Origin: Acidimicrobiia bacterium
Lineage (GTDB): Bacteria > Actinomycetota > Acidimicrobiia > Spongiisociales > Spongiisociaceae
Assembly: GCA_009838635.1 (NCBI GenBank)
Contig: VXRE01000049.1
Span: 13,349 to 77,348 of the forward strand
Reading direction: 5' to 3'
DNA: 64,000 bases
Shown: positions 11,000 through 57,559 of the stretch, piece after piece
How positions within the stretch are numbered: position 1 is the first letter of the stretch
Layout of the letters: each line of letters starts with the position of its first letter
Made by a program: the position numbers and the translations under genes
The notes under the pieces: generated by a model
What the model was told of the DNA's origin: nothing
What the model saw: the letters and a program-made list of their open reading frames with translations, nothing else
Databases searched by the model: none

Positions 11000-11029
11000 C
11001 GAGTCCGTAAACGTCCGTGGAGGGATCGC

Positions 11030-12115: not shown

Positions 12116-12127
12116 ACACGAGGGCCG

Positions 12128-15730: not shown

Positions 15731-15789
15731 CGGGTCAGACCTCCGATCTAGAGATAATTGACTGGAGACAGATATGCATGCGGCTCTTC

Positions 15790-16254: not shown

Positions 16255-16257
16255 GCC

Positions 16258-17122: not shown

Positions 17123-18515
17123 CTAGCCCGACGCCGGGGGGTGGTAGCCGGCCCGCCGGCACAGCTCGCTCAGATGCTCGGCGGCATTCTCCACCACCGC
17201 GGCCGGATCGACCGCGGTCAGGCGTCCGTGGCGCTTCAGGATCCGTCCGTCGATCATGACCGTGTCGATGTTGGCAGGTTGGGCGGAATGGACGATCGCG
17301 ACGGCCGGGTCGTGGACGGGCGCCATGTTGAGGGCGTCGGTCCTCACCATCAACAGGTCGGCCCGCTTGCCCACCGTTATCGATCCCACCAGGTGGTCCA
17401 GGCCCAGGGCACGGGCTCCCTCGATCGTCGCCAACTCCAGGACCCGCCGGGGGCTCAGCGCTTCGGGGTCCTGGTTGGCGATCGACTCCAGCCCAACCGC
17501 CACCCGCATCGCCGCGAAGACGTCGGCACAGGCCGAGATGGCCGTGGTGTCGAGCGACAGGCTCACCGGGATGCCGGCGGCGAGGTGCCCACCCACCGGC
17601 GGGGCGCCCATGCCCAACCTCAACGAGGACATGGGGCTCATGCTCACCGGGATCCGGTTGGCGGCCAGGTACTCGCGTTCGGTCCGGGAGATGTAGAGGC
17701 AGTGGGCCAGGAGCATGCCGGGACCCAGGAGCCCCTCGTCGTGCAGTATCCGGACCTGGTGGATGCGCCGCACCTCCGCCCTGGTACCGGCGCAGTGCAT
17801 CGAGATGGTCAGGCCCTGTTCCCTCGCCAGCGCCCACTCCTTGCGGTAGACCTCGGGAGTCGACCGGGCTGGTCCCCTCACGCCCACGCCAAGGGTCAGG
17901 AGACCATCGGAGTGCGGTACCCACTCCTCGGCGATCCGCCCGATACTCCCGAAGTCCATGACCTCGTCAGGGAGGACGCCGCCCCTCGCGAGGATGGCTC
18001 GCATCTTCTCCATGGGCATCGAGGGATGCGCCGACGGAGCGGAGTAGGAGAAGTGCACCCTCGTACCCAGCCGCCGGTGAACATCGAGGTTGGCCTCTGC
18101 GTCGCCGTACCGCATGATGTTGTGCGACCAATCGTGGACCGTGGTCACGCCGGCGGCGATACCCTCGGCCATGCCGAGCATCACCCCCGCCGCCACGTCC
18201 TCGGGCGTGAAGAATCCGCCGAGCCTGCCCTTCGTGGCGAACCAGCCATGCTTCTTGCCGTCTCCCACCACACCTCTCAGCAGCGTGCCCCACACGTGCC
18301 AATGCGAATCGACGAAGCCGGGCATGGTTATGCAGTTGCTTCCGTCGATGGACTCGGCGCCGTCGGCGGGCAACCGGGGACCGACGGCAACCAGAGCGCC
18401 GTCGGCGACCTCGACGTCCGTTCCCGTGAGTTCTCCCAGGGCTGGATCCATGGTCAGCGCCGTAGTGTCCCGGATCACAAAATGACCTCTACGGGGCAGG
18501 CCTCGGACAACCATG
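17123..18515 (-). CDS. Amidohydrolase of the cytosine-deaminase / chlorohydrolase (TRZ/ATZ, SsnA-like) family
   Basis: PGFVDSHWHVW (HxH) is near the N-terminus and HC...DH motifs occur later. The start is placed at the MVVRGLPRRGHFVIRDT Met at 18515 rather than the ORF-track start at 18904, which is an upstream extension. Confidence 0.7.
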
Positions 18516-18608
18516 TCCGGCACCCTAGTGCTGCGGGCTGCGAGGGCACTGCATGGTGGTTCCGGCCGAGTGGCGCCACATGGGAGGGCCTGCATACAAT
18601 ATCCAGCG

Positions 18609-19313
18609 ATGAGCACCATCGACTCCCCGACGGTCATCCCGCCGGTCGGCATGCCCAGGCCGCAGTTCCTGCCCGCTGTTGAACCGCTCAGCGCCGAGGA
18701 CGCGGTGACGTCCGCACTGAGGGACGCCATTCTCAGCGGCAAGCTGATGCCGGGAGAACGCCTCGCCCAGGCAGAGTTGGCCCGGCAACTGGGCGTGAGC
18801 CGCATCCCGTTGCGCGACGCGCTGCGGCGGCTCGGCGAGGAGGCCCTGGTACGGATCGACGGGCGGCGCGGAGCCTGGGTGACCGCTCTGTCGAAGCGCG
18901 ACATCGCGGAGATCTACGAGCTGAGGATCATGCTCGAAGGTCGATGCATCCGCTACGCAGTCCAGAACCTGTCCGGCCACCAGGAGCAGGCGGCAGTGCT
19001 GGAACTGTCGAAGCACATGGACAGCTCGGACCGGGACGACCCGGCGGGCCGGGAAGCCCGACGACGGTTCTACGACGTGCTCTACTCCCACTCAGGGCGT
19101 CCCCGGATGCACCGGCTCATCATGCAGCTCCGGGACAACGTGGGTCGGTACCACCTGATACAGGACACAGACCTGGCGCACGCCGCCCACTCCGAGGTGC
19201 GCCACTGCATCATGCGCGGGGACGCCGACGGGGCTGCCCGCGCAGTGAAGGCCCATCTCGAGGAAGCCCGGGAGGACCTGCTGGCAACCATGTCAGAGGA
19301 GACCCTCCAGTAG
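18609..19313 (+). CDS. GntR-family transcriptional regulator, FadR/FCD subfamily
   Basis: The HTH is ERLAQAELARQLGVSRIPLRDALRRL, followed by an all-helical FCD-like C-terminus. The start is chosen at MSTIDSP. It is divergent from the amidohydrolase operon and precedes hyuA. Confidence 0.75.
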   Translation: MSTIDSPTVIPPVGMPRPQFLPAVEPLSAEDAVTSALRDAILSGKLMPGERLAQAELARQLGVSRIPLRDALRRLGEEALVRIDGRRGAWVTALSKRDIAEIYELRIMLEGRCIRYAVQNLSGHQEQAAVLELSKHMDSSDRDDPAGREARRRFYDVLYSHSGRPRMHRLIMQLRDNVGRYHLIQDTDLAHAAHSEVRHCIMRGDADGAARAVKAHLEEAREDLLATMSEETLQ

Positions 19314-19391
19314 TGCCGCACCACGGGGGAGCGGCCGGCCCTGAAGACGCCGGTGGGGTCGGTGACCGGGGGGAAGGCCGTCCTTGGCATA

Positions 19392-19402
19392 AGGTATACA
19401 AT
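19392..19402. promoter_or_regulatory. GGTATACAAT element (GTATACA core) about 55 bp upstream of the hyuA start and downstream of the FCD-GntR gene. I interpret this as a putative GntR-type operator.
   Basis: Read directly. FadR/FCD-type GntR operators commonly contain GT-N(x)-AC palindromes. Confidence 0.35.
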
Positions 19403-19455
19403 CCGGGTATGGACCAGACCACACCAGTGAAGCCGCGCGTCCGGCGAGGGACGCC

Positions 19456-21627
19456 ATGTACCGGATAGCAGTCGACGTAGGTGGTACGTTCACCGACTGC
19501 CTCGTCCTAGACGAACAGACCGGTGACCTGCGTCAGTTCAAGTCACCCACCACCCCGCCCGATCCGTCGATCGGGTGTATTGACGCTCTCGCCAAGGCGG
19601 CGACCGCGTACGGGCTGGCGCTCCCGGCCTTTCTGGAAAGGGTGACACTCCTCATCCACGGGACCACCCTTGCCACCAACACCCTCATAAACGAGGACGG
19701 CGCCAGAACCGGAATGATCACCACCAGGCACTTCCGGGACATGCTGGAAATACGCCGTGGCTACAAGAACGTGCGGACCTCCATGTACAACGTGTTCGTG
19801 CCGCCATACAAGCCCCTGATACCGCGCCGGCTGCGGCTCGAAGCGGAGGAACGGGTGCTGTACACGGGAGAGGTCCACAAGCCGCTCAACGAGGACGAGG
19901 TACGGGAAGCGGCCCGCCAACTCGGCCGCGAGGGCATCGAGTCGGTCGCGATCGGCTTCCTCCACGCCTACGCCAACACCGCCCACGAGCGACGGGCCGC
20001 CGAGATCGTGGAGGAGGAGTTGGGTGAAGACGTGTACGTGACCACCTCCTCCCAGATACTGCCCGTGTGGAGGGAGTGGGAGCGGTTCTCCACGATGGCC
20101 GTATCCGCATACACCGGCCCCGCCGTGAAGCGCTACCTGCTGGCTCTCGAGGACCGGCTCGCCGAGAACGGCTTCGCCGGAAGCCTGATGATGATGCTCT
20201 CGGATGGACTCGTCGAGACGGTCGAGAACTGCATCCCCCGCGCTGTCTACCTCATCGGATCCGGTCCGGCCGCAGCCCCCGCCGCCGCCGTGCACCTCGG
20301 CTCCGAGACCGGCCACAAGAACCTGCTCAGCTTCGACATGGGGGGAACCTCCATCGACATAGGGGTCGTGATGAGGGGAGAGATACCGACCACGACCGAG
20401 GGATGGGTACAGGACGAGCGGGTGGCCATCAAGATGGTTGACATCGTCTCGGCCGGAGCCGGCGGCGGGTCGATTGCCTGGGTCGATTCGCTGGGCCTGC
20501 TCAGGGTGGGGCCGAACTCGGCCGGAGGCGATCCGGGGCCGGCCTGTTACGCGAAGGGCGGGACGGCGCCGACCGTCACCGACGCCGACCTGGTGCTCGG
20601 CTACATCGACCCGGACTTCTTCCTGGGAGGCGAGATCCCGCTCGATCCGGGACTGGCCGTAAGCGCCATCGTCGACAAGGTAGCCGACCCTCTGGGCATG
20701 ACCGTCGAGCAGGCCGCCGAGGCGATCATGACCGCGGTCAGCTCCTTCACCGCGGACGAGATCAACGAGATGGCGACCCGGCGAGGGATCGACGTCCGGG
20801 ACCTGACCCTGGTGGCCGGGGGCGGGGCCGGACCGGCGCACGCGGCGTTCATCGCCGACATATTGGGGCTCCCGCACGTGATCGTGCCGTCGGTGGCATC
20901 GACCTATTCGGCGTTCGGGATGTTCGCGATGGACGTGGGCCGTAACTACGCCCGCTCCTACATAACCCGATTCGCCGACCTCGACACCGACCGGGTGCAG
21001 GCCCTCTACGAGGAGATGGAGCAGGAAGCCATCACCGGCTTCGGGGAGATGGGGTACCGGGCCGAGGACGTGAGCTTCGCCCGCACCGCCGATCTCCGCT
21101 ACATAGGGCAGTTCCACGAGGTGGAGGTGGAGATGCCGTTGGATCCCGGCCAGGACCTTTCCGAGACAGCCGAGAAGACCTTCCGGGCGAGCGTCTTCCG
21201 GGACGCAGGCGGGATGCAGATGCTGGACGCGGTCGAGGAGGCCATCGACAACTTCCACGCCAAGCACTACGACCTGTACACGTTCAACATGCCATGGCAG
21301 GGGGTCGAGTTGCTGACCTTCCGGCTCCGGGCCACCGTACCGAAGGCACCCTTCGAGCTCCACCGGATCCCGGAGGGCGGTCCCGATCCGTCGGCCGCGC
21401 TCAAGTCGCATCGTGACTGCTGGTTCGGGGGCGAGCGGGTGCCCACCCCCATCTTCGACGGCGGCCGGCTGAAGGCCGGCAATCAAGTCGTGGGTCCGGC
21501 CATCATCGAGGAGCCGACCACCACGGTGGTGGTGCCCGGATCGTTCACGGCCACGGTCGACGCCCAGCGCAGCTACCACCTGAACCGCGACGGAGCGGTC
21601 GGAGAACCCACGGGAGGTACGACATGA
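19456..21627 (+). CDS. hyuA: Hydantoinase/oxoprolinase family A subunit (ATP-dependent N-methylhydantoinase A / acetone-carboxylase beta-like)
   Basis: MYRIAVDVGGTFTDCLV...IHGTTLATN is the canonical HyuA N-terminus. Length is 723 aa. Confidence 0.85.
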   Translation: MYRIAVDVGGTFTDCLVLDEQTGDLRQFKSPTTPPDPSIGCIDALAKAATAYGLALPAFLERVTLLIHGTTLATNTLINEDGARTGMITTRHFRDMLEIRRGYKNVRTSMYNVFVPPYKPLIPRRLRLEAEERVLYTGEVHKPLNEDEVREAARQLGREGIESVAIGFLHAYANTAHERRAAEIVEEELGEDVYVTTSSQILPVWREWERFSTMAVSAYTGPAVKRYLLALEDRLAENGFAGSLMMMLSDGLVETVENCIPRAVYLIGSGPAAAPAAAVHLGSETGHKNLLSFDMGGTSIDIGVVMRGEIPTTTEGWVQDERVAIKMVDIVSAGAGGGSIAWVDSLGLLRVGPNSAGGDPGPACYAKGGTAPTVTDADLVLGYIDPDFFLGGEIPLDPGLAVSAIVDKVADPLGMTVEQAAEAIMTAVSSFTADEINEMATRRGIDVRDLTLVAGGGAGPAHAAFIADILGLPHVIVPSVASTYSAFGMFAMDVGRNYARSYITRFADLDTDRVQALYEEMEQEAITGFGEMGYRAEDVSFARTADLRYIGQFHEVEVEMPLDPGQDLSETAEKTFRASVFRDAGGMQMLDAVEEAIDNFHAKHYDLYTFNMPWQGVELLTFRLRATVPKAPFELHRIPEGGPDPSAALKSHRDCWFGGERVPTPIFDGGRLKAGNQVVGPAIIEEPTTTVVVPGSFTATVDAQRSYHLNRDGAVGEPTGGTT

Positions 21628-23393
21628 GACCCGGCCCCGTCGACCCGATCACCCTCTCAACCATCTGGAACTCGTTCCAGAGCATGGGCCGCGAGATGCG
21701 CTACGTCATCGACCGCACCGCGCAGAACTACCTGATCGCCCAGCTCCACGACATGGCGGCCGGTATCTGGGACGCGCAGGCCCGCACCATCGCGGTTCCC
21801 GAAGGACCCACGTCCATGTTCCTGTCGCAGCAGTTCTCGGTGGAGTACATCCTCGACAAGTTCGGCGACGACCTGCATCCGGGCGATGTGATCATCTGCA
21901 ACGACCCCTACAAGGGGTACTGCAACCACCTCCCGGACTGGGGTTTCTTCAGGCCGATCTTCTACGAGGACGAGTTGGTGTTCGTCGCCCTGACCCGGGG
22001 CCACCAGATGGACACGGGAGGATCGTTCCCCGGTGGCTACTTCCCCAACGGCTACGACATACACGCCGAAGGGTTGATGATCCCCCCCACCAAGATCTAC
22101 GACCGGGGCCGGGAGCGCACCGACGTGCTGGAGCTCATCTGGAACAACGTCCGGTGGCCCGACGGGGTCAAGATCGACAACTACGCGCTGATGGCGGCGC
22201 TGCAGGTGTGCGACAACCGGATCGTCACCCTGCTCGACAAGTACGGCGTCCCGACGGTCAAGGATGCGGTGGAGGAGATGCTGGACCGGATGGAGGCCAA
22301 CGTGCGGGCCCAGCTCGCGGAGGTCCCGGACGGGACCTACTACGGCGAGTCGGCCACCGACGACGACGGCACGGTTCTCGACGAACTGGTGTGGGTGCGC
22401 TGCGCGGCCACCATCAAGGGCGACGAGCTGATCCTGGACTTCTCCGAGAGCGACGCCCAGCGGAAGGGGTTCGTGAACTGCGTCTACTCGTCCACCTACA
22501 GCCGGGCCGTGGCGGGCAGCTTCCTCTACTTCGACCCCGCCTACTCGGAGTTCCACAACGAGGGCAGCATGCGACCCATCACCGTGGTCGCCCCGGAGGG
22601 CTCCGTCTGCAACGCCCAGTACCCGGCGACGGTGGGTGGATCCCCGGTGAACGTGGGGACCCAGGTGCTGGAGGCGACGGTCAACGCCCTGTCTAAGGCC
22701 ATGCCGGACAAGGCCATCGCCGGATGGGGCCGCCGGAGGGGCCACTACATCGCAGGCGTCGATCCCCGCACCGGTGAGCGCTACGTGCAGACCACCACCG
22801 ATGCCGACGGTGGCTCGGGAGCGGTGTGGGGCTACGACGGGTTCGAGGGCGCCATGGGTATGTCCGGCCTCGGCTCGATCCAACGCGGCAGCGTGGAGGA
22901 GATCGAGATCCGCTTCCCCTGGCGAGCGGTGCGCTACCACTACGTCCCGGACATGTCGGGGGCCGGCCGCTGGCGGGGCGGGTCGGGAATGCTCTGGGAA
23001 GTGGAGAACGTCGGTGGGGACGTAGGGGTGGCAACCGGCAGTTCGGACGGCGACCTGACCCAGCCGCCGGGAGCGGTCGGGGGCGAGGACGGTCCCCTGT
23101 CGAGGATGTACGTGCGCCGGGGAGATGAGATCATCCCGGCCCGCACCCACCGCATGGTGCAGATCAAGAGCGGGGAGATCCTCGGGAAGGTCAGCGGCGG
23201 CGGAGGCGGAGTGGGTGATCCCACCGAGCGAGACCCCGACAAGGTGCTCGAGGACGTGCGCAACGAGTGGGTGACGCCCAGCCACGCGCGGAGCGTCTAC
23301 AAGGTGGCGATCGACACCGAGACCATGACCGTCGACCGGGACCAGACCCGGATGCTCCGAAGCTCCACAGGCGAGACCGAGACCGAGACCTAG
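21624..23393 (+). CDS. hyuB: Hydantoinase B/oxoprolinase family subunit
   Basis: MRPGPVDPITLSTIWNSFQS...NDPYKG... is the canonical HyuB signature. Length is 589 aa. Its start overlaps the hyuA stop (ATGA). Confidence 0.85.
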   Translation: MRPGPVDPITLSTIWNSFQSMGREMRYVIDRTAQNYLIAQLHDMAAGIWDAQARTIAVPEGPTSMFLSQQFSVEYILDKFGDDLHPGDVIICNDPYKGYCNHLPDWGFFRPIFYEDELVFVALTRGHQMDTGGSFPGGYFPNGYDIHAEGLMIPPTKIYDRGRERTDVLELIWNNVRWPDGVKIDNYALMAALQVCDNRIVTLLDKYGVPTVKDAVEEMLDRMEANVRAQLAEVPDGTYYGESATDDDGTVLDELVWVRCAATIKGDELILDFSESDAQRKGFVNCVYSSTYSRAVAGSFLYFDPAYSEFHNEGSMRPITVVAPEGSVCNAQYPATVGGSPVNVGTQVLEATVNALSKAMPDKAIAGWGRRRGHYIAGVDPRTGERYVQTTTDADGGSGAVWGYDGFEGAMGMSGLGSIQRGSVEEIEIRFPWRAVRYHYVPDMSGAGRWRGGSGMLWEVENVGGDVGVATGSSDGDLTQPPGAVGGEDGPLSRMYVRRGDEIIPARTHRMVQIKSGEILGKVSGGGGGVGDPTERDPDKVLEDVRNEWVTPSHARSVYKVAIDTETMTVDRDQTRMLRSSTGETETET

Positions 23394-23398
23394 CCAGC

Positions 23399-24358
23399 AT
23401 GACCCGAACCCGCCCGTTGACGGATCTGGAGATCCTGGCACGGATGTGGCTGATCAGGGCGTTCGAAGAGAAGGTGTCGGAACTGTACGCCGCCGGCAAG
23501 GTGGCCGGTCTGATCCACCTGGGGATCGGACAGGAGGGATCGGCGGTCGGTACCTGCGCCGCCCTCGGCCGGAGCGACTACGTCTTTGGCACCCACCGCT
23601 CCCACGCCCACGCCATCGCCAAGGGCGCCGACCTCCGCCGGTTGATGGCCGAGATCGCCGGGCGGTCCACGGGCTATTGCAAGGGGAAGGGCGGGTCCAT
23701 GCATATCTCGGCGCCCGAGGTTGGCTTCGTGACCGCCACGGGGGTGGTGGCCGGGAACATCCCCCTGGCGCTGGGCGCCGCCCTGACCAGCGTCACGCGC
23801 AACGAGGACCGGGTATCCGTGGCCTTCTTCGGCGACGGGGCCGGCCAGAGTGGTCCCTTCCACGAGAGCCTCAACATGGCCGCGCTGTGGAAGCTGCCGG
23901 TGGTACTGGTGTGCGAGAACAACGGGTACGTCGAGTTCTCTCCCCTGTCCGCCCACACGGTGGTGGAGCGCCTGGCCGACTACGCATCCGTCTACTCGAT
24001 CCCGGCCGTCACCGTGGACGGTGGTGACGTCCTGGCGGTCAGGGACGCCGTGACGGAGGCCGTGGACCGCGCCCGGGGCGGGGGCGGACCCTCCTTCGTG
24101 GAGGTGCTCACCCACCGCCTCCGGGGTCATTACGAAGGAGACCCGGCCCGCTACCGGACGCTGTCCGAGCGGGAGGAGTGGAAGCGGAAGGACCCGGTCG
24201 CCCGCTTCGCCAGGCATCTGGCCGAGTCGGGGGTTCCGCCGGAGTCGCTGGATGACGTCGAGGCCGCGGCCCGGACCCGGGTTGCCGTAGCGGCCGAGCA
24301 GGCCCTGGCGGATCCCCCCGCCGACCCGGCGGGCGTGACCGGCGACGTGTACGTGTGA
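23399..24358 (+). CDS. TPP-dependent 2-oxoacid/acetoin dehydrogenase E1 component alpha subunit (copy 1)
   Basis: The TPP motif FFGDGAGQSG...ESLNMAALWKLPVVLVCENNGY is present. The start is set at MTRTRP immediately after the hyuB stop, and the ORF-track N-terminal extension is rejected. Confidence 0.8.
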   Translation: MTRTRPLTDLEILARMWLIRAFEEKVSELYAAGKVAGLIHLGIGQEGSAVGTCAALGRSDYVFGTHRSHAHAIAKGADLRRLMAEIAGRSTGYCKGKGGSMHISAPEVGFVTATGVVAGNIPLALGAALTSVTRNEDRVSVAFFGDGAGQSGPFHESLNMAALWKLPVVLVCENNGYVEFSPLSAHTVVERLADYASVYSIPAVTVDGGDVLAVRDAVTEAVDRARGGGGPSFVEVLTHRLRGHYEGDPARYRTLSEREEWKRKDPVARFARHLAESGVPPESLDDVEAAARTRVAVAAEQALADPPADPAGVTGDVYV

Positions 24359-25365
24359 TGGCAGCCCGTATCCGGTACATCGAGGCTGTGCGGCAGGGGT
24401 TGCAGTCCTCCATGCGTTCCGACCCCTCGGTCATCGTGCTGGGTGAGGACGTGCGGTACGGCGGCCCCTTCGGCGCCACCAAGGGCTTGGCGGACGAGTT
24501 CGGGAAGGGCCGCATCCTCGACACCCCGATCAGCGAGGCCACCGTGATGGGCATGGCCACCGGGGCGGCGGCAACCGGCCTGCGCCCGATCGTCGAGATC
24601 ATGTTCGTCGACTTCGCCACCCTGGCGATGGACCAGCTGGTCAACCACGCCGCCAAGCTGGGCTTCATGACCGGCGGCCTTCTGCGAGTGCCGCTTACGG
24701 TACGGGTCCAGGGCGGCGTGAGCGGGCGGTTCGGCGCCCACCATTCCCAGAGCCTCGAAGCCTGGTTCCTGCACACGCCGGGCCTCAAGGTGGTGGCGCC
24801 CGCCTTTCCGGGCGATGCCGCCAGGCTGCTCGAGGTCGCCATCGCCGACGACAACCCGGTGGTGTACATGGAGCACCGGGGTCTGTACTGGACGAAGGGC
24901 GAGGTCACGGGGAACGAGCCGGCGTCGGGATCCGTAGTGCGGCGGCGCGGCGACCATGTGACGATCGTCTCCTACTCGAGGATGGTCCACCACGCGCTGG
25001 CCGCGGCCGATACCCTGGCAGCGGACGGCATCGGATGCGAGGTGATCGACCTCCGCTGGCTGGCTCCACTCGATCTGGAACCGGCTGTGGCCTCATTGCG
25101 CCGGACGGGTAGGGCGGTGGTAGCTCACGAGGCCGTCACTACCGGCGGGGTGGGCGCCGAGGTGGTGGCCCGGCTCCAAGCCGCCCGCGGTATCCGCACC
25201 AGGGCTCCGATAGCCCGGGTGGGGGCGCCGTTCGCCCCGGTGGGCGCCGCACCGGAGTTGGAGGACGCGTTCGTTCCCGGTTCCGGAGACATCGTGGGGG
25301 CGGTGCGAGGCCTGCTCGGCGAGGCCCCGCCCCGGACCGATGGACAGAAGGGAGGAAGAACGTGA
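24355..25365 (+). CDS. E1 component beta subunit (transketolase-like, copy 1)
   Basis: It has VIVLGEDV...GGPFGATKGL..DTPISEA, the typical E1-beta fold. Its start overlaps the alpha stop. Confidence 0.8.
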   Translation: MMAARIRYIEAVRQGLQSSMRSDPSVIVLGEDVRYGGPFGATKGLADEFGKGRILDTPISEATVMGMATGAAATGLRPIVEIMFVDFATLAMDQLVNHAAKLGFMTGGLLRVPLTVRVQGGVSGRFGAHHSQSLEAWFLHTPGLKVVAPAFPGDAARLLEVAIADDNPVVYMEHRGLYWTKGEVTGNEPASGSVVRRRGDHVTIVSYSRMVHHALAAADTLAADGIGCEVIDLRWLAPLDLEPAVASLRRTGRAVVAHEAVTTGGVGAEVVARLQAARGIRTRAPIARVGAPFAPVGAAPELEDAFVPGSGDIVGAVRGLLGEAPPRTDGQKGGRT

Positions 25366-26381
25366 TCCCCGACCTACCGGCCGATCGCCTCACCGACTAC
25401 CTGCGCCGGATGCTGGTCATCCGCCGCTTCGAGGAGGGGCTGATAGAGCTGGCCGGCGAGTACGCCGTCGGCCACTTCCACGTGTATATCGGCCAGGAGG
25501 CCACCGGCGTGCCGGCCCTGGCGCAGCTCGAGCCGGGAGACGTGGGCTTCACCACCCACCGGAACCACGGCCACCTGCTGGCCAGGGGCACCGACCCGGC
25601 CGCCATGTTCGCCGAGATCCTCGGCAAGGAGACGGGGACCAACCGCGGCAAGGGGGGCACCCTCCACATCGCCTCGCTCGAGAACGGCTTCCCGACCACG
25701 TCGGCGGCCACCGGGGGCTGCACACCCCTCGCGACCGGGGCCGCGTTCGCCTTCTCCCGGCTCGGGAGGGATCGGGTGTCCGTATGCCTGTTCGGTGACG
25801 GAGCCCTGGAGGAGGGCACCTTCCACGAGTCGATCAACATCGCCGCCCTAGAGAGCCTCCCCGTCATCTACCTGTGCGAGAACAACAGCCTGGAGGCGCT
25901 CGGTCAGAAGGCCAACGAGTACCCGTCCTCCACGATGGCGGCGGCGCCGCTCACCGACCTGGCCGCCGCCTTCAAGGTGCCCACGATCACGGTGGACGGC
26001 ACCGACACCGGAGCGGTCCACGATGCGATGGCGACCGCCGTCGGGCGAGCCCGCGGCGGCGGTGGCCCCACCTTCATCGAAGCGCTCACGGTCCGGTGGC
26101 CGGGAAGCCGGCCGATCTGGCCACAACTCCTCACCGGTCCGACCGATCTCTCCTACGCGTGGGACCCTTCGGCGATCCCGGCCGACTACGCGGTCTGGCA
26201 CGCCGAGCAGGATGGGCTGCTCCGCTACGTCCGGGAACTGCTCTCGGCCGGAGTGCTGACCCCCGACGAGGCGTTGGCAATGGACGAGCAGGTCAAGGAC
26301 CGGATCGAGCGCGGCGTCCGGTTCGCCCTCGACAGTCCTTACCCTCCCGTGGCCAGCGCCCTCGAGTCCGTCTACGCCTAG
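25362..26381 (+). CDS. E1 component alpha subunit (copy 2)
   Basis: A GTG start overlaps the beta-1 stop. The TPP motif LFGDGALEEGTFHESINIAALESLPVIYLCENN is present. Confidence 0.8.
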   Translation: MIPDLPADRLTDYLRRMLVIRRFEEGLIELAGEYAVGHFHVYIGQEATGVPALAQLEPGDVGFTTHRNHGHLLARGTDPAAMFAEILGKETGTNRGKGGTLHIASLENGFPTTSAATGGCTPLATGAAFAFSRLGRDRVSVCLFGDGALEEGTFHESINIAALESLPVIYLCENNSLEALGQKANEYPSSTMAAAPLTDLAAAFKVPTITVDGTDTGAVHDAMATAVGRARGGGGPTFIEALTVRWPGSRPIWPQLLTGPTDLSYAWDPSAIPADYAVWHAEQDGLLRYVRELLSAGVLTPDEALAMDEQVKDRIERGVRFALDSPYPPVASALESVYA

Positions 26382-26547
26382 TGGTCTGTCTGTGGAATGG
26401 CGGTGTGGTATGGCGTCGGCAGCGGTGTTCCTCGCAAGGCCCGCTGACGAAGGCGTACCCGCAGTGGTACGTTGAGGAAGCGGAACGCAGCGACGGGACA
26501 CCGATGACCGCCAGAACACACCAAGCTGTTTCGCAGATAGACCACTA
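26379..26547. repeat. 170-bp non-coding insert between the E1 alpha-2 and beta-2 genes, bounded by 14-bp inverted repeats (TAGTGGTCTGTCTG ... CAGATAGACCACTA). This may be a MITE-like or structured-RNA element.
   Basis: Read directly. The left repeat begins at the alpha-2 stop codon (26379). The right repeat ends 10 nt before the beta-2 ATG, and 13 of 14 positions are complementary. Confidence 0.5.
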
Positions 26548-26557
26548 GAGGGTGGAT

Positions 26558-27544
26558 ATGCGCGAGATGCTCTATGCCGAGGCGCTGGTCGAGTCGCTCC
26601 GCCACCAGATGGCGACCGACGAGCGGGTCCACCTCATGGGCCTCTACTTCCTGGGCCTCACCAAGCACCGGGCGATCATGGCCCGCCTGCATGCCGACTA
26701 CCCGGGCCGCGTCTACCACCCCCCGATCGCCGAGGTCGGGTACGTGGGCGTGGCCATAGGAGCAGCGCTGGCCGGGCTGAGGCCCATCGTGGACATGGCC
26801 ACCGCCAGCTTCATGTTCCAGGCCTTCCCCCAGATCGTCAACGAGGCGGCCAACATCCACTACATGTCGGGCGGCGCCACCAAGGTGCCGATGGTCTTCC
26901 ACTTCAACCACGGCATCCGCGGAGGAGGGGCGGCCCAACACTCGCACAGCCCGCAGGCGATGCTCTGGAACACCCCTGGGCTCGAAATCATGGCGCCCTC
27001 CACGCCTCGGGACGTGATGGGGCTGGTCAACACTGCCGCTGCGTCCGACAACCCGACCGCCTGGGTGGATCACGTCCGCCTGTTCGACACCAGTGGCCCG
27101 GTACCCGACGACAAGGATTTCTCCATTCCCTTCGGCGTCGCCGACGTCAAGCGGCAGGGCGGAGACGTCACCGTGTTCGCCTCGTCCTGGATGGTCGTGC
27201 GGGCCCTCGAGGCCGCCGAAACCCTGAGCGCGGAAGGGATCCAGGCGGAGGTAATCGATCCCCGCACGCTTTCGCCCCTGGACGAGGAGACGATCCTTGA
27301 ATCGGTGGCCAAGACCGGGCGCCTGGTCGTGGTGGACGAGTGCCACCGCCGGTGCGGCGTGGCCGCCGAGATCACCGCCGTGGTCACTGAACGTGCATTC
27401 GGCGACCTGGTGGCCGCTCCGATCCGGGTTACCACGGCCGACGTGCCCATCCCGTTCAGCCCGCCCCTCGAGCAGCACGTCGAGCCGACTACCGACAAGA
27501 TCGTCGCGGCCGTCCGGGCGGTAACGGACAGCGCCGCCGGGTAG
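26558..27544 (+). CDS. E1 component beta subunit (copy 2)
   Basis: It has E1-beta features (HLMGLYF.., PIVDMATASFMFQAF, C-terminal transketolase-C-like region). The start is at the ATG 5 nt after AGAGGG; an alternative GTG lies at 26552. Confidence 0.8.
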   Translation: MREMLYAEALVESLRHQMATDERVHLMGLYFLGLTKHRAIMARLHADYPGRVYHPPIAEVGYVGVAIGAALAGLRPIVDMATASFMFQAFPQIVNEAANIHYMSGGATKVPMVFHFNHGIRGGGAAQHSHSPQAMLWNTPGLEIMAPSTPRDVMGLVNTAAASDNPTAWVDHVRLFDTSGPVPDDKDFSIPFGVADVKRQGGDVTVFASSWMVVRALEAAETLSAEGIQAEVIDPRTLSPLDEETILESVAKTGRLVVVDECHRRCGVAAEITAVVTERAFGDLVAAPIRVTTADVPIPFSPPLEQHVEPTTDKIVAAVRAVTDSAAG

Positions 27545-27549
27545 ACAGA

Positions 27550-29802
27550 ATGGAACTGGGCCAGGCGCCGGTTCGGCTGGAGGACCTCCCGCTGATCACC
27601 GGCTCCGGCCGGTTTGTCGGCGACATGGTGGACGTCGGCACCCTCCACTGTGCTTTCGTGCGCAGCCCGGTCGCCCACGGCAGGCTGTTGCCTCCGGACC
27701 TCGGCGGCGCCCGGAGCCTTCCAGGCGTCGTCGCCGTCTTCGGCGCCCACGACCTCGGATTGCCGGACATGCCTTCGTCGCCCCATCCGGGCGCACCTGA
27801 GGCCGCCGGCATGGGCCAGCCGCCCCTGGCCCGCGACCGGGTGCGTTACGTGGGAGAGCCGGTTGCAGTGGTCGTTGCCGAGACGGCTGTCCAGGCGGTG
27901 GACGCCGCCGGGTCGGTGTGGATCGAGGCCGAGGAACTCCCCGCCGTGGACACCGACTCCGCGCTGGCGGGCGAGGTGCTGCTGTTCCCGGATACAGGCT
28001 CGAACATCGCCCACCGCGCCACGATCATGACCGAGGGACCCCGACCCGCTGCGGAGATCGAGGCTTCCGCAGAGGTGGACATTCCCAGGGTCTCGCCGGT
28101 GACCATCGAGCCCCTGGCCATACTCGCCCGTCCGGCGGGCTCCGGCCTCGAGGTCTGGTGTGGCCATCAGGCGCCCGCAGCGCTGTCGAGACAACTCGGA
28201 GCGATGCTGGGCATCGACCCGTCCAGCATCAGAGCGAGGGTTCCGGATGTGGGCGGGGCCTTCGGGACCAAGGGCCAGTTCTATCCGGAGTATCCCGTCG
28301 TGGCGGCCATAGCCCGGCGTCTGGCTAGGCCGACCGTCTGGCTCCAGAGCCGGACCGAGCAGCTCATGTGCGGTACCCATGGCCGAGCCCAGCACATCAC
28401 GATGCGGGTCGGCGGCGACCGTGACGGACGGATCCGCTACCTCGCCGCCGAGATAGTGGGCGATTCCGGGGCTTACCCGTGCGCCGGAGCGCGGGTTCCC
28501 TTCTACACCCTGCCCGTGATCCAAGGTCCTTACGACATCGAGCATCTCGAGGCCACCGCAACCGCGGTCGTCACCAGCAGGGCCCCGGTCGGCCCGTACC
28601 GTGGCGCCGGCAGGCCCGAGGCGGCCATCGCCATCGAACGGGCGGTGGATGCGTTCGCGCAGTGTGCCGGGTTGCTTCCCGAGGAGGTGCGGAGGCGCAA
28701 CTTCGTCGATCCGGCCGACTTCCCCTTCAGGAGCCACACCGGCTTCATCTACGACTCGGGTGATTACGTGGCCGCCCTGGAGCTGGCCATCGACACGGCC
28801 GACATGGCTCGGTGGCGGCAACTCCGGGCCGAACGGCGGGCCGGCGGGGGCGATCCCATCGGTATCGGTATCGGCTCGTTCATCGAGCGCGCCGGGGGCT
28901 CGGCCGGTTCGGGCGAGTACGGCAGGGTCGAGATCAGCCAGGACGGCGGTGTGGTCGTGAGGACCGGATCGACGCCCGCCGGCCAGGGACACCGTACGGT
29001 CTGGTCCCAGATAGCGGCAGGGGTGTTCTCCGTGCCCACCGAGGAGGTGACGGTCTACGCGGGGGACACGGGCGAGGTGGCAGGCGGTGTCGGAAGCTTC
29101 GCGAGCCGCTCCACCCAGCTCGGAGGCTCGGCGATCCTTCGAACGGCCATCGAGGTTCGCGCCCGCGCCCGGGCGGTCGCCGCCGGCATGCTCGAGGCGT
29201 CAGAGGCGGATCTCGTCCTGGTGGACGGGGGCTTCGGCGTCGCCGGCTCGCCGGGCACTACCGTCACGCTCGCCGAGGTTGCCGCCGAGGCGGCAGCCAC
29301 CGGCGTCGAGCTGGCGGCCGAGGAGATGTACACCGGCGCCACGCTGACCTTCCCCTTCGGAACCTACGTGGCAGTCGTCGAGGTGGAACGCGAGACGGGC
29401 GAGGTGGGCCTGCTGTCACTCGTAGCCGTCGATGACTGCGGCAACGTGCTGAATCCGATGATCGTCGAGGGCCAGGTACACGGCTCGGTCATGCAGGGCA
29501 TCGGGGAGGCGCTCCTGGAGGAGGTCGTGTACAACGCCGACGGGCAGCCCATCAACGCCAACCTGGCCGGTTACCTCGTGCCCACGGCCACCCAGCCCCT
29601 CCCGCTGATCGCGCGGCGGACCACCACTCCGGCCCCCGGCAATCCTCTCGGCGTCAAGGGAACCGGCGAGGCCGGTTGCATCGGGGCACCTCCGGCGATC
29701 CTGAACGCCGCGCACGACGCCCTGCGCGACGACGGGGTGACATCCTTGGACTTCCCACTCACACCCGCCCGAGTGTGGGAGGCCATCCGCTCGGCCCGAT
29801 AG
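27550..29802 (+). CDS. Xanthine-dehydrogenase/aldehyde-oxidase family molybdopterin-binding large subunit (CoxL-like, form-II type)
   Basis: It is 750 aa, with the form-II-type loop PYRGAGRPE and a molybdopterin-binding fold. No cognate small or medium subunit gene is adjacent. Confidence 0.8.
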   Translation: MELGQAPVRLEDLPLITGSGRFVGDMVDVGTLHCAFVRSPVAHGRLLPPDLGGARSLPGVVAVFGAHDLGLPDMPSSPHPGAPEAAGMGQPPLARDRVRYVGEPVAVVVAETAVQAVDAAGSVWIEAEELPAVDTDSALAGEVLLFPDTGSNIAHRATIMTEGPRPAAEIEASAEVDIPRVSPVTIEPLAILARPAGSGLEVWCGHQAPAALSRQLGAMLGIDPSSIRARVPDVGGAFGTKGQFYPEYPVVAAIARRLARPTVWLQSRTEQLMCGTHGRAQHITMRVGGDRDGRIRYLAAEIVGDSGAYPCAGARVPFYTLPVIQGPYDIEHLEATATAVVTSRAPVGPYRGAGRPEAAIAIERAVDAFAQCAGLLPEEVRRRNFVDPADFPFRSHTGFIYDSGDYVAALELAIDTADMARWRQLRAERRAGGGDPIGIGIGSFIERAGGSAGSGEYGRVEISQDGGVVVRTGSTPAGQGHRTVWSQIAAGVFSVPTEEVTVYAGDTGEVAGGVGSFASRSTQLGGSAILRTAIEVRARARAVAAGMLEASEADLVLVDGGFGVAGSPGTTVTLAEVAAEAAATGVELAAEEMYTGATLTFPFGTYVAVVEVERETGEVGLLSLVAVDDCGNVLNPMIVEGQVHGSVMQGIGEALLEEVVYNADGQPINANLAGYLVPTATQPLPLIARRTTTPAPGNPLGVKGTGEAGCIGAPPAILNAAHDALRDDGVTSLDFPLTPARVWEAIRSAR

Positions 29803-29812: not shown

Positions 29813-30877
29813 CTACCAGTCTCCTTCCGCGACACTCAGGACGATCTTGCCGACGTTGCGCCTCGAGCCCAGGTCGGCGTAGGCCGCGCGAATGTCGCCG
29901 AGGGGTCGGACCGAGTCGATCGCCGGATCGATGCGGCCTGCTCCGGCCAGGTCGATGCACCGCCGCATCCCCCGCCGCGTGGATCCCGCGCTTCCGTATA
30001 TCGCCACCCGCGACCGGAACAGCCAGTTGTTGTTGAGTTGGACCATCGGGCCGGCGTGCGACCCGCAGACCACCACCCGGGCCCGGTTCCGGAGTGTCTT
30101 GAGCACCTCTTTCCACACGTCCGGGTTGCTGGCAGGATCGAGGAAGAGGGTGACGCCCTCGGGAACGATGCCGCGGATCCGGCCTGCGAAGTCGGGCTCG
30201 GCGGTGTAGTCGACGGTGGCGTCCGCACCGGCTACGGCCGCCCGCGCCGCCCGATCAGGCGAGCCGGCCGCACCGATGACGAACGCACCGGCCAGCTTGG
30301 CGAGCTGGACCGCGGCGGAACCGATGGCGCCGGATGCGCCCGCCACCATGACCACATCGTCCCTGGTCAGTCCTACCCGGGTGAACATCTGCTCCGCGAC
30401 GGGAAACGAGTGGGCCAGTGCGGTCGCCTTCGCGTGGCTCAGACCGGATGAGACGGGGAACACGCTGCGCTCGGGCACCGTCACGTACTCCGCATGTCCA
30501 CCCCACCGGTGGACGCCCACGTTATGGAGGGAGGGACAGGAGTCGTCCTCGCCTCGAGCGCAGAATTCGCAGGCATCGCAAGCGATCGGAGGTTTGACGA
30601 CCACCCGCCGGCCGATCGCGAGGGAAGTGACCCGGGAACCGTGCCCGGCAACCACCCCCGATGGATCTATCCCCATCACGTGCGGAAACGAGAGGTTCGC
30701 CATATGGGCCCGGCCCGACATGGTGAAGAGATCCTGGTGGTTCACGGCCACCGTCCGGACCCGGATCAGCACCTCGTCCTCCGCCGGTTCCGGTACCGGC
30801 AGGTTGGTGTCCATGATGCAGTGGGGCCCTCCGAGCTCCGCCAGCGCCATGGCTCGCATGGTCTTCGGGAGGGTCAC
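29813..30877 (-). CDS. Zinc-binding alcohol dehydrogenase / MDR-family oxidoreductase
   Basis: A GroES-like N-terminus with catalytic-zinc Cys and structural-zinc ligands (CDACEFCARGEDDSC) and a Rossmann motif VAGASGAIGS are present. Confidence 0.75.
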   Translation of the reverse strand: MTLPKTMRAMALAELGGPHCIMDTNLPVPEPAEDEVLIRVRTVAVNHQDLFTMSGRAHMANLSFPHVMGIDPSGVVAGHGSRVTSLAIGRRVVVKPPIACDACEFCARGEDDSCPSLHNVGVHRWGGHAEYVTVPERSVFPVSSGLSHAKATALAHSFPVAEQMFTRVGLTRDDVVMVAGASGAIGSAAVQLAKLAGAFVIGAAGSPDRAARAAVAGADATVDYTAEPDFAGRIRGIVPEGVTLFLDPASNPDVWKEVLKTLRNRARVVVCGSHAGPMVQLNNNWLFRSRVAIYGSAGSTRRGMRRCIDLAGAGRIDPAIDSVRPLGDIRAAYADLGSRRNVGKIVLSVAEGDW

Positions 30878-30997: not shown

Positions 30998-32425
30998 TCA
31001 TGCCCGGTCCCCCTCGGGCTTCGTGATGAGAGTGCGCGCCGTCATGATGACCCCTGCCAGGGCCACGGCAGCCAGCCCGGCTTCGCCCACGGGGAATCCC
31101 GAGCCCAGGAGCGGGACGGACAGGTCACGCTGGATGATCCCGGTTGTCACCGCCCCGCCCGATGATCCGCCGAGGAAGAAGCCGAGGTAGAAGATCCCGA
31201 TGGCGATCGACTGGGATGGACCGTCGAAGCGCTTCGTCACCGCATCGACCAGCGGAGGGGTCAACAGTCCGAACCCGATGCCGAGCGGTATCACCAGTAT
31301 CGCCACCAAGCCGGGGCCGCGGTCGACTCCCAGGGCGGCCAGCAGCCCGGTTCCCGCCAGAAGGAACAGCAGCGAGACCAGCGTCGTGCCCATGTAGCCC
31401 AGCCTCCGTGAGGCAAGCCTGGTAGTCGTGGACGCCAGGGAGATCGACGCCGCGGCGGGGACGATGACCAGGCCGATACCCACGGCATCTATCTCGTGGG
31501 CCCGGGACAGGGCCGATGGCAGGGCGATGATGGTACCGAGATAGGCGGCGCTTCCCACGAAGGCGGCGATCGCCAGAGGGAGGAACTTCCGGTCAGACAG
31601 CACCGACATGGGTACGAACGGGGCCGGATGGCGCTTCGACCTGGAAGCGGTGAGCAAGCCGCCCAGAACGGCGACTATCACGGCGCCCCCGGTCAGGAGC
31701 GTGGCGCCGTCTAACGGGAACCGGTTGACGGCAAAGACCAAACCGCCGATCAGGAGCAGGACCGAGCCCGCACCCGCGTAGTCCAGGTGGTGGTCGGGGT
31801 CACCGCGCTGGGGCAGGTCGTACCAGATGAACGCCGCGACGGGTGAGGCCAGCATCCCGACCCCCACCGCGGCCCGCCAGCTGATGAGGTCCACCAGCAG
31901 ACCGCCGATCATCGGTCCGAGGGCCTGAGCGACTCCCACCACCGCGGTGATGATCCCGTAGGCGAACTGGCGCCGCTCCGGGGGGTACCTGGTTGCGAGG
32001 ATGGCGACCGACAGGGTCGGGATAGCCCCTGAACCCGCCCCCTGGATCACCCGCGCCGCGATCACCACCTGCAGGGTCGGGGCCACGACCGCCACCAGGG
32101 AGCCGAACGCAAGGAGCAGGATCCCGAACGAGAGGGTTCTTCCCAGCCCGAACCGGGCCGCCAGCCGCCCGTACAGAGCGGTGGCTATGGCGAACATCGC
32201 CGAGTAACCGAAGACCACCCACCCCACGTCCGCCGGCCCGGCCGCGAACGTCTGGGCGATGGCGGGTTGGGAGACGGCCGAGGCCGTCGTATTGGCCACG
32301 GTGAGGAACACGGCCGCCCCGAGCATGGTCAGGATGGCAGTCGCCGACAGCCGGCCCCTAACGGTATCCACGCTACATGTCCGTTCCGGCCCGCTCAAAC
32401 AGATCCGGCTCGAGCGGACCCGCAT
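30998..32425 (-). CDS. MFS transporter (DHA2/EmrB-like, about 14 TM)
   Basis: It is hydrophobic throughout and has the MFS motif GRLAARFGLGRT. The true start is probably downstream of the listed one (MLGAAVFL...). Confidence 0.7.
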   Translation of the reverse strand: MRVRSSRICLSGPERTCSVDTVRGRLSATAILTMLGAAVFLTVANTTASAVSQPAIAQTFAAGPADVGWVVFGYSAMFAIATALYGRLAARFGLGRTLSFGILLLAFGSLVAVVAPTLQVVIAARVIQGAGSGAIPTLSVAILATRYPPERRQFAYGIITAVVGVAQALGPMIGGLLVDLISWRAAVGVGMLASPVAAFIWYDLPQRGDPDHHLDYAGAGSVLLLIGGLVFAVNRFPLDGATLLTGGAVIVAVLGGLLTASRSKRHPAPFVPMSVLSDRKFLPLAIAAFVGSAAYLGTIIALPSALSRAHEIDAVGIGLVIVPAAASISLASTTTRLASRRLGYMGTTLVSLLFLLAGTGLLAALGVDRGPGLVAILVIPLGIGFGLLTPPLVDAVTKRFDGPSQSIAIGIFYLGFFLGGSSGGAVTTGIIQRDLSVPLLGSGFPVGEAGLAAVALAGVIMTARTLITKPEGDRA

Positions 32426-57542: not shown

Positions 57543-57559
57543 CCGGGATACGCTGACTG

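Follow-up and report, generated by a model that had tools for sequence, protein, structure and literature searches.

A conserved cluster of hydantoinase-type and tandem E1 dehydrogenase genes in uncultured bacteria, a probable marker of an undescribed route for breaking down small nitrogen-containing ring compounds

Organisation of the operon in the window

The stretch of DNA analysed here (hereafter referred to as the window) comprises 64,000 nt of contig VXRE01000049.1 from an Acidimicrobiia bacterium, with a G+C content of about 67%, and carries an operon in which the genes for a hydantoinase-type enzyme, hyuA and hyuB, are followed by two pairs of genes for the α and β subunits of thiamine pyrophosphate (TPP)-dependent E1 enzymes and by a gene for a CoxL-type molybdenum hydroxylase large subunit. 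All coordinates are positions in the window unless a locus is named, and the gene calls are based on Pfam, NCBIfam and third-position G+C. The first gene, on the plus strand like all the genes of the cluster, encodes a regulator of the FCD-type GntR group (18609-19313) with the Pfam domains GntR (N-terminal winged helix) and FCD (C-terminal). It is followed by hyuA (19456-21627; Hydant_A_N, Hydantoinase_A and Hydant_A_C) for the ATP-binding subunit and hyuB (21624-23393; Hydantoinase_B, 455 bits) for the metal-containing catalytic subunit. The first E1 pair consists of a canonical-looking TPP-dependent E1 α subunit, E1α1 (23399-24358; E1_dh), and of E1β1 (24358-25365; Transket_pyr and Transketolase_C), and the second of a divergent α subunit devoid of the active-site histidine, E1α2 (25362-26381), and its partner E1β2 (26558-27544; Transket_pyr and Transketolase_C). 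The lone CoxL-type large subunit is encoded at the end (27550-29802; Ald_Xan_dh_C, MoCoBD_1 and MoCoBD_2). A preliminary description of the window, made from the letters of the sequence, had named these genes, and the Pfam and NCBIfam searches recovered all of them in the order in which it listed them.

The successive junctions from hyuA/hyuB onwards are an ATGA overlap, a 5-nt gap, TGATG and GTGA overlaps, the interval between E1α2 and E1β2, and another 5-nt gap. The preliminary description had the genes following each other without gaps, which is true of most of the junctions, being overlaps or 5 nt long, but not of the interval between E1α2 and E1β2, which measures 176 nt due to an inserted element of 163 nt. 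A consensus scan detected no promoter-like site inside the operon and, as regards terminator-like sites, just one weak hit, a number exceeded in shuffled sequence. The overlapping start and stop codons, the lack of internal promoter-like sites in the scan and the single weak terminator-like hit show the genes to form one operon.

The inserted element (26382-26544; 26378-26548 with its flanks) resembles a miniature inverted-repeat transposable element (MITE) and lies outside the conserved system described below. It has terminal inverted repeats of 11 nt (TGGTCTGTCTG/CAGATAGACCA) and a target-site duplication, CTAG, that includes the stop codon of E1α2, the insertion being placed exactly after the stop, and it folds as a single hairpin (-109 kcal/mol, z = -10). 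The corresponding site is empty in a relative with 97% identity (L007), and the insertion is strain-specific; it may affect the expression of E1β2 and CoxL. Copies of the element with 95% and 90% identity are present on two contigs of the metagenome assembly MKWU01, CTAG flanks are shared by 16 of the 68 metagenome matches to the repeat pair, and a metagenome contig with an identical CoxL has its start within the element. For the gap between E1α2 and E1β2, an RNA of a known kind such as a riboswitch was considered and rejected, the gap having no match in Rfam and being a mobile element.

Conservation of the core and the enzyme families encoded by it

The comparison of gene neighbourhoods proposed in the preliminary description was carried out by mapping the window proteins onto 86 fetched loci, and the 39 non-redundant loci with adequate flank on both sides were counted. 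E1β2 adjoins E1α2 in all 39 loci, both E1 pairs are present in 31 and hyuAB in 24; hyuAB together with both E1 pairs (hereafter referred to as a complete cluster) was found in 20. The complete clusters belong to the Acidimicrobiia, several classes of the Chloroflexota (including Limnocylindrales), the Lysobacterales, a metagenome-assembled genome (MAG) of the Burkholderiaceae and an alphaproteobacterial MAG. The core conserved across phyla is composed of hyuAB and the E1 pairs, with the E1 pairs accompanying each other. The recurrence of one gene order in several phyla shows that the arrangement is not due to chance. Three of the 39 loci (L026, L042 and L054) carry hyuAB with E1α2β2 alone, which identifies this pair as the closest partner of hyuAB, and hyuAB with E1α2β2 only is also observed in L082, a locus with a short downstream flank.

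The window belongs to an uncultured lineage of the Acidimicrobiia that is associated with sponges, and the closest genome contigs are those of uncultured Acidimicrobiia, including a MAG with 97% identity and 'Candidatus Spongiisociaceae' MAGs with 88-92%. HyuB shares 77-96% identity with its orthologues in the complete clusters of the Acidimicrobiia, Chloroflexota and Lysobacterales, and 77-82% with those of the latter two lineages. Members of the E1α2 family are nearly always 339 amino acids in length, with identities of 65% or more across the best 120 database matches, the labels of which include Thermoleophilia, Chloroflexota, Gammaproteobacteria and Streptosporangiales; the best 80 genome matches for E1α2 are all MAGs. 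A tblastn search for close relatives on 72,556 plasmids yielded paralogues only, with identities of at most 40% for E1α2, 52% for E1α1 and 36% for HyuB. A plasmid of Terrarubrum flagellatum (NZ_CP091854.1) was examined as a possible cultured carrier and rejected, its HyuB being merely 28% identical. In this cultured alphaproteobacterium, an acoA/acoB/acoC-like gene set is convergent with a hydantoinase A/B pair (L155, 8947-16004); the two enzyme types have either become associated independently in it or lie together by coincidence.

A gene for an FCD-GntR regulator adjoins half of the complete clusters (10 of 20), and the product of the one in the window is likely to be a repressor of the operon. 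A 17-nt box, GCATAAGGTATACAATC (19387-19403), which contains the palindrome GTATAC and lies about 50 nt upstream of hyuA, is the sole conserved block in the otherwise variable region upstream of hyuA in six Acidimicrobiia loci, with variation at two central positions, and a related half-site, GCATACAATATCC, is located in front of the regulator gene (18592-18604). Sites of the GT-N-AC type are used by FadR/FCD regulators, and the box may be regarded as a putative operator.

The two E1 pairs are old paralogues and different enzymes, with 40% identity between their α subunits and 38% between their β subunits. Both pairs possess the features of the E1 family, i.e. an E1_dh domain with the GDG...NN TPP motif in the α subunit and Transket_pyr and Transketolase_C in the β subunit. 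The two α subunits differ in the active site. In E1α1, the loop HRLRGHYEGDP aligns with YRYHGHSMSDP of human PDHA1, and the active-site histidine is present in 47 of 47 orthologues over all the loci. Its counterpart in the human enzyme, His263-α, belongs to the catalytic site and forms a hydrogen bond with pyruvate (PMC6168537). In E1α2, the loop is replaced by TVRWPGSRPIWP, together with about 15 extra residues, the position of the histidine is occupied by Ser, Asn, Gly or Thr in all 83 orthologues, and invariant histidines are found where the human protein has Phe61 and Tyr89. The active site of E1α2 is thus remodelled family-wide, on account of which E1α2 may function as a lipoyl-independent decarboxylase or lyase. 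The acetoin dehydrogenase system (AcoA/AcoB, AcoC and AcoL) and the E1 components of the pyruvate dehydrogenase (PDH) and branched-chain 2-oxo acid dehydrogenase (BCKDH) complexes are the nearest known systems and likewise have α/β E1 subunits with the TPP motif and, as in E1α1, the catalytic histidine. However, they contain one E1 pair where the present system has two non-redundant ones, and the loss of the histidine and the altered loop seen in every E1α2 member set the second pair apart from them.

A chance grouping of housekeeping enzymes, namely two pyruvate or branched-chain E1s, a 5-oxoprolinase and a spare CoxL without a common pathway, would be consistent with the membership of all the proteins in large common families and with the scores of the E1 subunits, which lie just below the NCBIfam cutoffs for PDH E1 (TIGR03182, 315.8 and 234.2 bits against 393.85; for the β subunits PRK09212, 297.5 bits for E1β1 and 284.4 bits for the second pair against 321). 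The missing E2 and E3 could in that case be encoded elsewhere in the genome. Such a grouping would however leave unexplained the gene order with translational coupling kept across phyla, the family-wide change in E1α2, the dedicated FCD-GntR with its conserved operator-like box, and the distance of the best plasmid matches from cultured bacteria given above for E1α2 and HyuB, and is considered highly improbable.

HyuA and HyuB contain the domains of their superfamily with Pfam E-values of 2.6e-78 to 2.6e-136. Among the proteins in the PDB, HyuA matches N-methylhydantoinase (7hk5, 417 bits), caprolactamase CapA (6yra_A, 393 bits) and the subunits of acetophenone carboxylase (329 bits) and acetone carboxylase (281 bits), and HyuB matches caprolactamase CapB (275 bits), N-methylhydantoinase (262 bits) and acetophenone carboxylase (114 bits), with no match to the α subunit of acetone carboxylase at E < 1e-5. 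Alignment to 7hk5 showed both DxGGT motifs for binding the phosphates of ATP to be retained in HyuA. Alignment to 6yra_B showed the CapB metal ligands D41, H99, D102 and H124 along with Tyr136 to be conserved in HyuB, the roles of the residues in the CapB metal site being those described in PMC8453981, whereas the positions L38, I60 and I62 of the hydrophobic pocket of CapB are occupied by Q, P and S. An identity as N-methylhydantoinase (EC 3.5.2.14) or caprolactamase is not borne out, as the equivalog cutoffs are not reached (caprolactamase models of NCBIfam: 592 bits for CapA and 357 bits for CapB against cutoffs of 1000) and the PDB matches of 262-417 bits are about equal for both enzymes. 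Nor is the gene pair that of a typical carboxylase, since its closest similarity is not to carboxylase subunits and no small gene for a γ subunit occurs in or beside the operon. Given the retention of the ATP motifs, the metal site and Tyr136, the changed pocket residues and the absence of a γ subunit, HyuAB has the appearance of an intact hydrolase that opens rings in an ATP-dependent manner and has a pocket of greater polarity. It shares with CapAB (PDB 6YRA), N-methylhydantoinase (PDB 7HK5) and 5-oxoprolinase the two subunits, the three HyuA domains, the HyuB domain, the DxGGT motifs, the D-H-D-H metal site and the pocket tyrosine. It differs from them in the scores far below the equivalog cutoffs, in the three polar or changed pocket positions and in its genomic setting: none of the characterised enzymes is coupled to E1 genes, whereas HyuAB of the type found in the window is always so coupled.

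Accessory subunits, neighbouring genes and alternative routes

No lipoyl domain or E2 catalytic domain was found in the window by tblastn, and Pfam scans of the window revealed no E3. The preliminary description had noted the lack of E2 and E3 partners, which is true of the window but does not extend to the E2 of its relatives. In 10 of the 20 complete clusters, the E1 genes are followed by a gene for a stand-alone lipoyl protein of 80 amino acids with the lipoylation motif ETEKA, and 8 of these 10 also encode a separate E2 catalytic domain of 235 amino acids with the motif DHRAIDG. The best family matches of this split E2 are AcoC and the PDH acetyltransferase, and not SucB. As related clusters carry the split E2, its lack in the window represents a lineage-specific loss or replacement. 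The order of a lipoyl protein (best match AcoC) and an acetyltransferase-type catalytic domain after the E1 genes is shared with the acetoin system, as are the alcohol dehydrogenase genes nearby and, in some lineages, sigma-54 activators. The relatives differ from the acetoin, PDH and BCKDH systems in having the E2 split into two proteins with no subunit-binding domain in the catalytic part; the window lacks any E2, and none of the clusters surveyed contains an E3 gene.

The CoxL gene is attached to the cluster in 4 of the 20 complete loci, all belonging to the clade of the window and all without the lipoyl protein and E2, and is a clade-specific addition outside the conserved system. On L014, a contig fragment from the Acidimicrobiia, an E2 gene occurs together with a CoxL-like gene on the opposite strand. 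The protein contains the domains of the molybdopterin-binding subunit of the xanthine dehydrogenase family (Pfam). Its active-site loop, PYRGAGR, is of the form II type and not the AYXCSFR of true carbon monoxide dehydrogenase; together with the lack of adjacent coxM and coxS genes and a score of 439 bits against the TIGR02416 cutoff of 991, this argues against a form I CoxL. The scores remain below every NCBIfam equivalog cutoff, the best being that for the α subunit of archaeal glyceraldehyde dehydrogenase (514 bits against 790), and the protein resembles a solved CoxL, quinoline 2-oxidoreductase and 6-hydroxypseudooxynicotine dehydrogenase to about the same degree, its matches to known structures amounting to 386-422 bits. 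A C-terminal GEAG glutamate resembles, as read by eye, the catalytic Glu of the family. A protein identical to the window CoxL is labelled at NCBI as originating from an Acidimicrobiia MAG.

The preliminary description had also remarked on the absence of iron-sulfur (FeS) and flavin adenine dinucleotide (FAD) subunits, and none is encoded adjacent to CoxL in the operon. The nearest relatives outside the clade (63-65% identity) are equally devoid of FeS and FAD subunit genes in all three contexts examined, indicating that the lone state is a property of this CoxL subfamily and not a peculiarity of the present operon. In these contexts (L157, 8001-11266; L158, 7015-10277; L159, 8001-11290), an Amidohydro_2 gene shows translational coupling to the orphan CoxL, and the two seem to constitute a unit within a transporter-rich cluster, which includes peptide/opine-type ATP-binding cassette (ABC) transporters and LVIVD-repeat proteins. 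The three-domain large subunit and the YRGAGR-type loop are shared with the form II CoxL-like hydroxylases, such as quinoline 2-oxidoreductase, 6-hydroxypseudooxynicotine dehydrogenase and archaeal glyceraldehyde oxidoreductase, from which the window protein and its 63-65% identical orthologues differ in lacking adjacent FeS and FAD genes, and the window protein also in its scores below the equivalog cutoffs. The sole FeS and FAD subunits in the window (Fer2_2; FAD_binding_5 and CO_deh_flav_C) are those of a complete coxM-coxS-coxL2 set on the minus strand at 51986-55799, which accounts for the CoxS and CoxM genes that the preliminary description had placed at 54.3-55.7 kb. The set lies about 24 kb away from the operon, and its CoxL2 is 34% identical to the operon CoxL; its coxM and coxS products are possible electron-transfer partners of the lone CoxL. 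A xanthine/uracil-family permease and an ArgE/DapE-type M20 deacylase are grouped with the set at 49650-57542, and these genes look like a separate unit for the oxidation of nucleobases or heterocycles.

The gene divergent from the operon (17123-18514, minus strand, with ATG at 18514) encodes a metal-dependent aminohydrolase similar to the ATZ/TRZ and 8-oxoguanine/guanine deaminase group (Amidohydro_1 and Amidohydro_3), which agrees with the cytosine-deaminase-like amidohydrolase of the preliminary description. It scores 402.7 bits against the cutoff of 391 for PRK08204 (NCBIfam), a generic subfamily, is syntenic in L002, L007, L009-L011 and L020, and is linked to the cluster in the Acidimicrobiia only. 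Upstream of it, at 14876-17112, are genes for a two-domain rhodanese similar to 3-mercaptopyruvate sulfurtransferase, a DUF2269 membrane protein and a metallo-β-lactamase (MBL) hydrolase similar to the AidB lactonase. In the Acidimicrobiia relatives these genes are kept in synteny, and in four Chloroflexota loci the cluster is followed by a rhodanese gene. A sulfur-compound pathway, suggested by the rhodanese and MBL genes, was considered and given up as a main line, the MBL protein appearing to be a lactonase of the AidB type and not a persulfide dioxygenase, and the rhodanese occurring in just 4 of the 20 complete clusters. The two paralogues of the sarcosine/dimethylglycine dehydrogenase type (DAO and GCV_T, Pfam) reported in the preliminary description are located at 5432-7939 and 12116-14611. 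Genes for a MocR-type regulator (GntR with an aminotransferase domain), an ω-transaminase and an alanine dehydrogenase lie between them, and the genes at 5432-14611 appear to form a unit of their own, distinct from the operon, for amino acids of the N-methylated or ω type; genes of the sarcosine dehydrogenase type are not among the recurrent neighbours of the cluster in other loci.

The preliminary description had connected these genes into a route in which creatinine is deaminated to N-methylhydantoin, opened by HyuAB to N-carbamoylsarcosine and converted to sarcosine for the nearby dehydrogenases, with the E1 and molybdenum genes providing extra steps. The resemblance to the known creatinine/N-methylhydantoin pathway lies in the presence, within 15 kb, of HyuAB, of genes of the sarcosine dehydrogenase type and of an amidohydrolase from the superfamily that includes cytosine and creatinine deaminases. 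N-methylhydantoinase is the best PDB match of HyuA, the two DAO and GCV_T dehydrogenases are encoded within 5-13 kb, a creatinase-like M24 gene occurs near the cluster in L003, and the CN-hydrolase and M20 genes of the window could serve as carbamoylases. However, the invariant partners of hyuAB are the E1 pairs, for which the route has no role, and its creatinine-specific parts are not conserved with hyuAB elsewhere, the deaminase accompanying the cluster in one class and the dehydrogenases being placed in the seemingly separate unit described above. HyuB fits caprolactamase about as well as N-methylhydantoinase, with both subunits far under the equivalog cutoffs, and the open reading frames scanned, which did not include every small one, contain no N-carbamoylsarcosine amidase of the isochorismatase type. 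The route thus explains the lineage-specific genes alone and not the core of hyuAB and E1, and is regarded as quite unlikely.

Downstream of the operon and convergent with it, the minus strand encodes a Zn-dependent medium-chain alcohol dehydrogenase (29813-30877; ADH_N and ADH_zinc_N). Homologues with 42-56% identity are located directly after E1β2 and in the same direction in Chloroflexota loci, and an alcohol dehydrogenase gene is present in 11 of the 20 complete clusters. Further away, an α/β hydrolase similar to the UilS lactonase (57543-58559, plus strand) is 66% identical to a homologue flanking the cluster in L026, and the adjacent dihydroorotase/hydantoinase-type cyclic amidohydrolase (58562-59923, plus strand; dihydroorotase/allantoinase/dihydropyrimidinase group of NCBIfam) is 55% identical to another gene flanking the same cluster. 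Members of both families likewise flank the cluster in L003, and one of the amidohydrolase family does so in L023. The pair is about 28 kb from the operon in the window and directly beside the cluster in L003 and L026, from which it follows that the pathway may be spread over the window. The window is altogether rich in genes with a bearing on N-heterocycles, among them those for the xanthine/uracil permease, CoxMSL and the M20 deacylase, an imidazolonepropionase-like protein, a CN-hydrolase and a PhyH-type dioxygenase.

Decarboxylases for aromatic or heteroaromatic acids recur around the core in three unrelated families. In the Limnocylindrales and Anaerolineaceae, a gene similar to 4,5-dihydroxyphthalate decarboxylase is placed directly upstream of hyuA; an example is a cytosolic protein with the binding-protein fold in L028 (1582-2574; PDB 9jp7, E = 3e-78). 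A gene of the UbiD family lies between hyuB and hyuA in L054 (11202-12758), a 'Deltaproteobacteria' MAG, and the third family is represented by Amidohydro_2 genes. Oxidoreductases of the luciferase-like monooxygenase (LLM) class, of F420-type families, are recurrent neighbours as well, and so are ABC transporters with binding proteins, those of the NMT1 type in the Binatia having signal peptides. The assumption that all the NMT1-like neighbours are transport proteins was abandoned, since the one in the Limnocylindrales has no signal peptide and matches 4,5-dihydroxyphthalate decarboxylase. Within the window, a stop-to-stop frame at 40637-42796 resembles two tandem NMT1-like genes placed exactly 999 nt apart, with a stretch of 300 nt being 88% identical, and points to a binding-protein gene that was duplicated in tandem not long ago. 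The genes sdhB, sdhA and sdhC (sdhBAC) of a succinate dehydrogenase/fumarate reductase follow the cluster downstream of the E2 genes in seven loci (L012, L018, L021, L023, L028, L030 and L032), which belong to the Chloroflexota except for one Acidimicrobiaceae MAG. Succinate or 2-oxoglutarate as an end product, hinted at by sdhBAC, is retained as a lead only, given the similarity of the split E2 to acetyltransferases and not to SucB.

A ketone or acyloin route would assign to HyuAB the role of an ATP-dependent carboxylase of the acetone/acetophenone type and to the E1 pairs the cleavage of an α-hydroxyketone into an aldehyde and an acyl group, with the alcohol dehydrogenase supplying or removing the alcohol or aldehyde. 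The matches of HyuA to the two carboxylases and of the stand-alone lipoyl protein of the relatives to AcoC are in line with this route, as are the recurrence of Zn-dependent alcohol dehydrogenase and aldo-keto reductase genes, the sigma-54 activators of the kind known from aco operons near the Binatia and 'Deltaproteobacteria' versions, and the UbiD genes similar to phenylphosphate carboxylase in or beside some clusters. The Terrarubrum plasmid, with a distant hyuAB adjoining an acoABC-like set, could be cited in its favour too, but its HyuB is so divergent as to belong to a different subfamily. The route is moreover at odds with the lack of a γ subunit, with the much better fit of HyuB to the hydrolases than to acetophenone carboxylase and the want of a match to acetone carboxylase α, and with the many amide and ring hydrolases and the deaminase among the neighbours, and is therefore judged unlikely.

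A biosynthetic cluster, in which the E1s would act as carboligases or C2-unit donors and HyuAB in ring chemistry, was also weighed. E1-like enzymes are known to donate C2 units together with lipoyl E2 proteins in antibiotic biosynthesis, and an efflux-type gene of the major facilitator superfamily (NCBIfam) is found nearby at 30998-32425. Genes for nonribosomal peptide synthetases, polyketide synthases, carrier proteins or tailoring enzymes are however not present; uptake ABC systems having binding proteins with signal peptides, hydrolases and an FCD-GntR form a catabolic signature, and the spread over many free-living lineages of soil and groundwater fits the use of nutrients. The chances of a biosynthetic role are accordingly taken to be very remote.

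Probable pathway and its significance

Taken together, the findings make the cluster a probable marker of an undescribed pathway by which a small ring compound containing nitrogen is degraded. The reading preferred here, with a probability of roughly one half, is that of a widespread catabolic module for a small polar cyclic amide, i.e. an N-heterocycle of the hydantoin, oxoproline or pyridone/pyrimidine type. From the observed gene content, operon structure, conservation and active-site residues, the order of the reactions, the chemistry of each E1 and the substrate class may be inferred as follows. HyuAB would open the ring at the amide bond in an ATP-driven reaction, and the ring-opened product or a close derivative would be a 2-oxo acid or an acyloin; one chemical rationale is that lactams in which a hydroxyl or oxo group adjoins the amide carbon would release 2-oxo acids on hydrolysis. 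E1α2β2, with its histidine missing and its loop remodelled, would act as a lipoyl-independent TPP decarboxylase or lyase, and the canonical-looking E1α1β1 would carry out an oxidative step, the acyl group being passed in most lineages to the stand-alone lipoyl protein and transferred to CoA by the separate E2 catalytic domain. In the sponge-associated Acidimicrobiia clade of the window, where the lipoyl protein and E2 are missing, the lone molybdenum subunit and/or the Zn-dependent alcohol dehydrogenase may deal with an aldehyde-level product; alternatively, the molybdenum subunit may hydroxylate the heterocycle before ring opening. The FCD-GntR would repress the operon via the GTATAC box. As a variable periphery surrounds a constant core, the neighbours that vary with the lineage (the deaminase, the cyclic amidohydrolases, the LLM oxidoreductases and the three kinds of aromatic-acid decarboxylases) may funnel their precursors into one common cyclic amide intermediate.

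A more specific version of the cyclic amide module is put forward tentatively and is considered rather doubtful. According to it, ring opening by HyuAB would feed a new class of lipoyl-independent, E1-type TPP lyases or decarboxylases, E1α2β2, which would act jointly with a canonical E1 and a split lipoyl/E2 system in dismantling an N-heterocycle, for example a pyrimidine, a hydroxypyridone or an oxidation product of the hydantoin type. Independently of this, the CoxL subfamily would represent a molybdenum enzyme that does without the usual FeS and FAD subunits.

Several points weigh against a cyclic amide module. Both E1 pairs occur without hyuAB in 11 of the 39 loci, mostly from the Binatia and 'Deltaproteobacteria', so that the E1 pairs can work alone and the coupling of ring opening to the use of a 2-oxo acid is not obligatory. 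The missing histidine of E1α2 shows a changed active site and not its reaction, and the relatives of HyuAB include true carboxylases, a carboxylation being compatible with its sequence. In 6 of the 20 complete clusters, neither E2 nor CoxL is nearby, and the lone molybdenum subunit is without an evident electron acceptor. Some of the neighbour links, such as those with sdhBAC and the rhodanese, may be synteny accidents within related lineages. Finally, the substrate is named only as a class, and the members of the family are all from uncultured organisms.

The preliminary description did not recognise the arrangement as a described pathway, and full-text literature searches found no paper describing a cluster of hyuAB with a double E1. 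A review on guanidine that mentions hyuA was set aside, as it concerns the unrelated, amidohydrolase-type HyuA of E. coli. As far as the searches show, the double-E1 arrangement, the E1α2 without histidine, the split E2 and the lone-CoxL subfamily are undescribed. Every part belongs to a well-known enzyme family, and it is their combination for which no description was found in the literature searched.

The finding is more general than could be seen by the preliminary description from the window alone, the carriers being never-cultured bacteria from sponges, soil and groundwater as well as from marine or lake water. Ring compounds rich in nitrogen abound in sponges and soils, and the cluster, if the reading as a cyclic amide module is true, would represent a new microbial way to open and dismantle stable cyclic amides. 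The FCD-GntR regulator and its conserved box offer a direct experimental way to the identity of the substrate. The module would also provide a first functional handle on the E1 subfamily without the histidine, on the split E2 systems and on the 'orphan' CoxL genes, which are routinely mis-annotated as carbon monoxide dehydrogenase in metagenomes.

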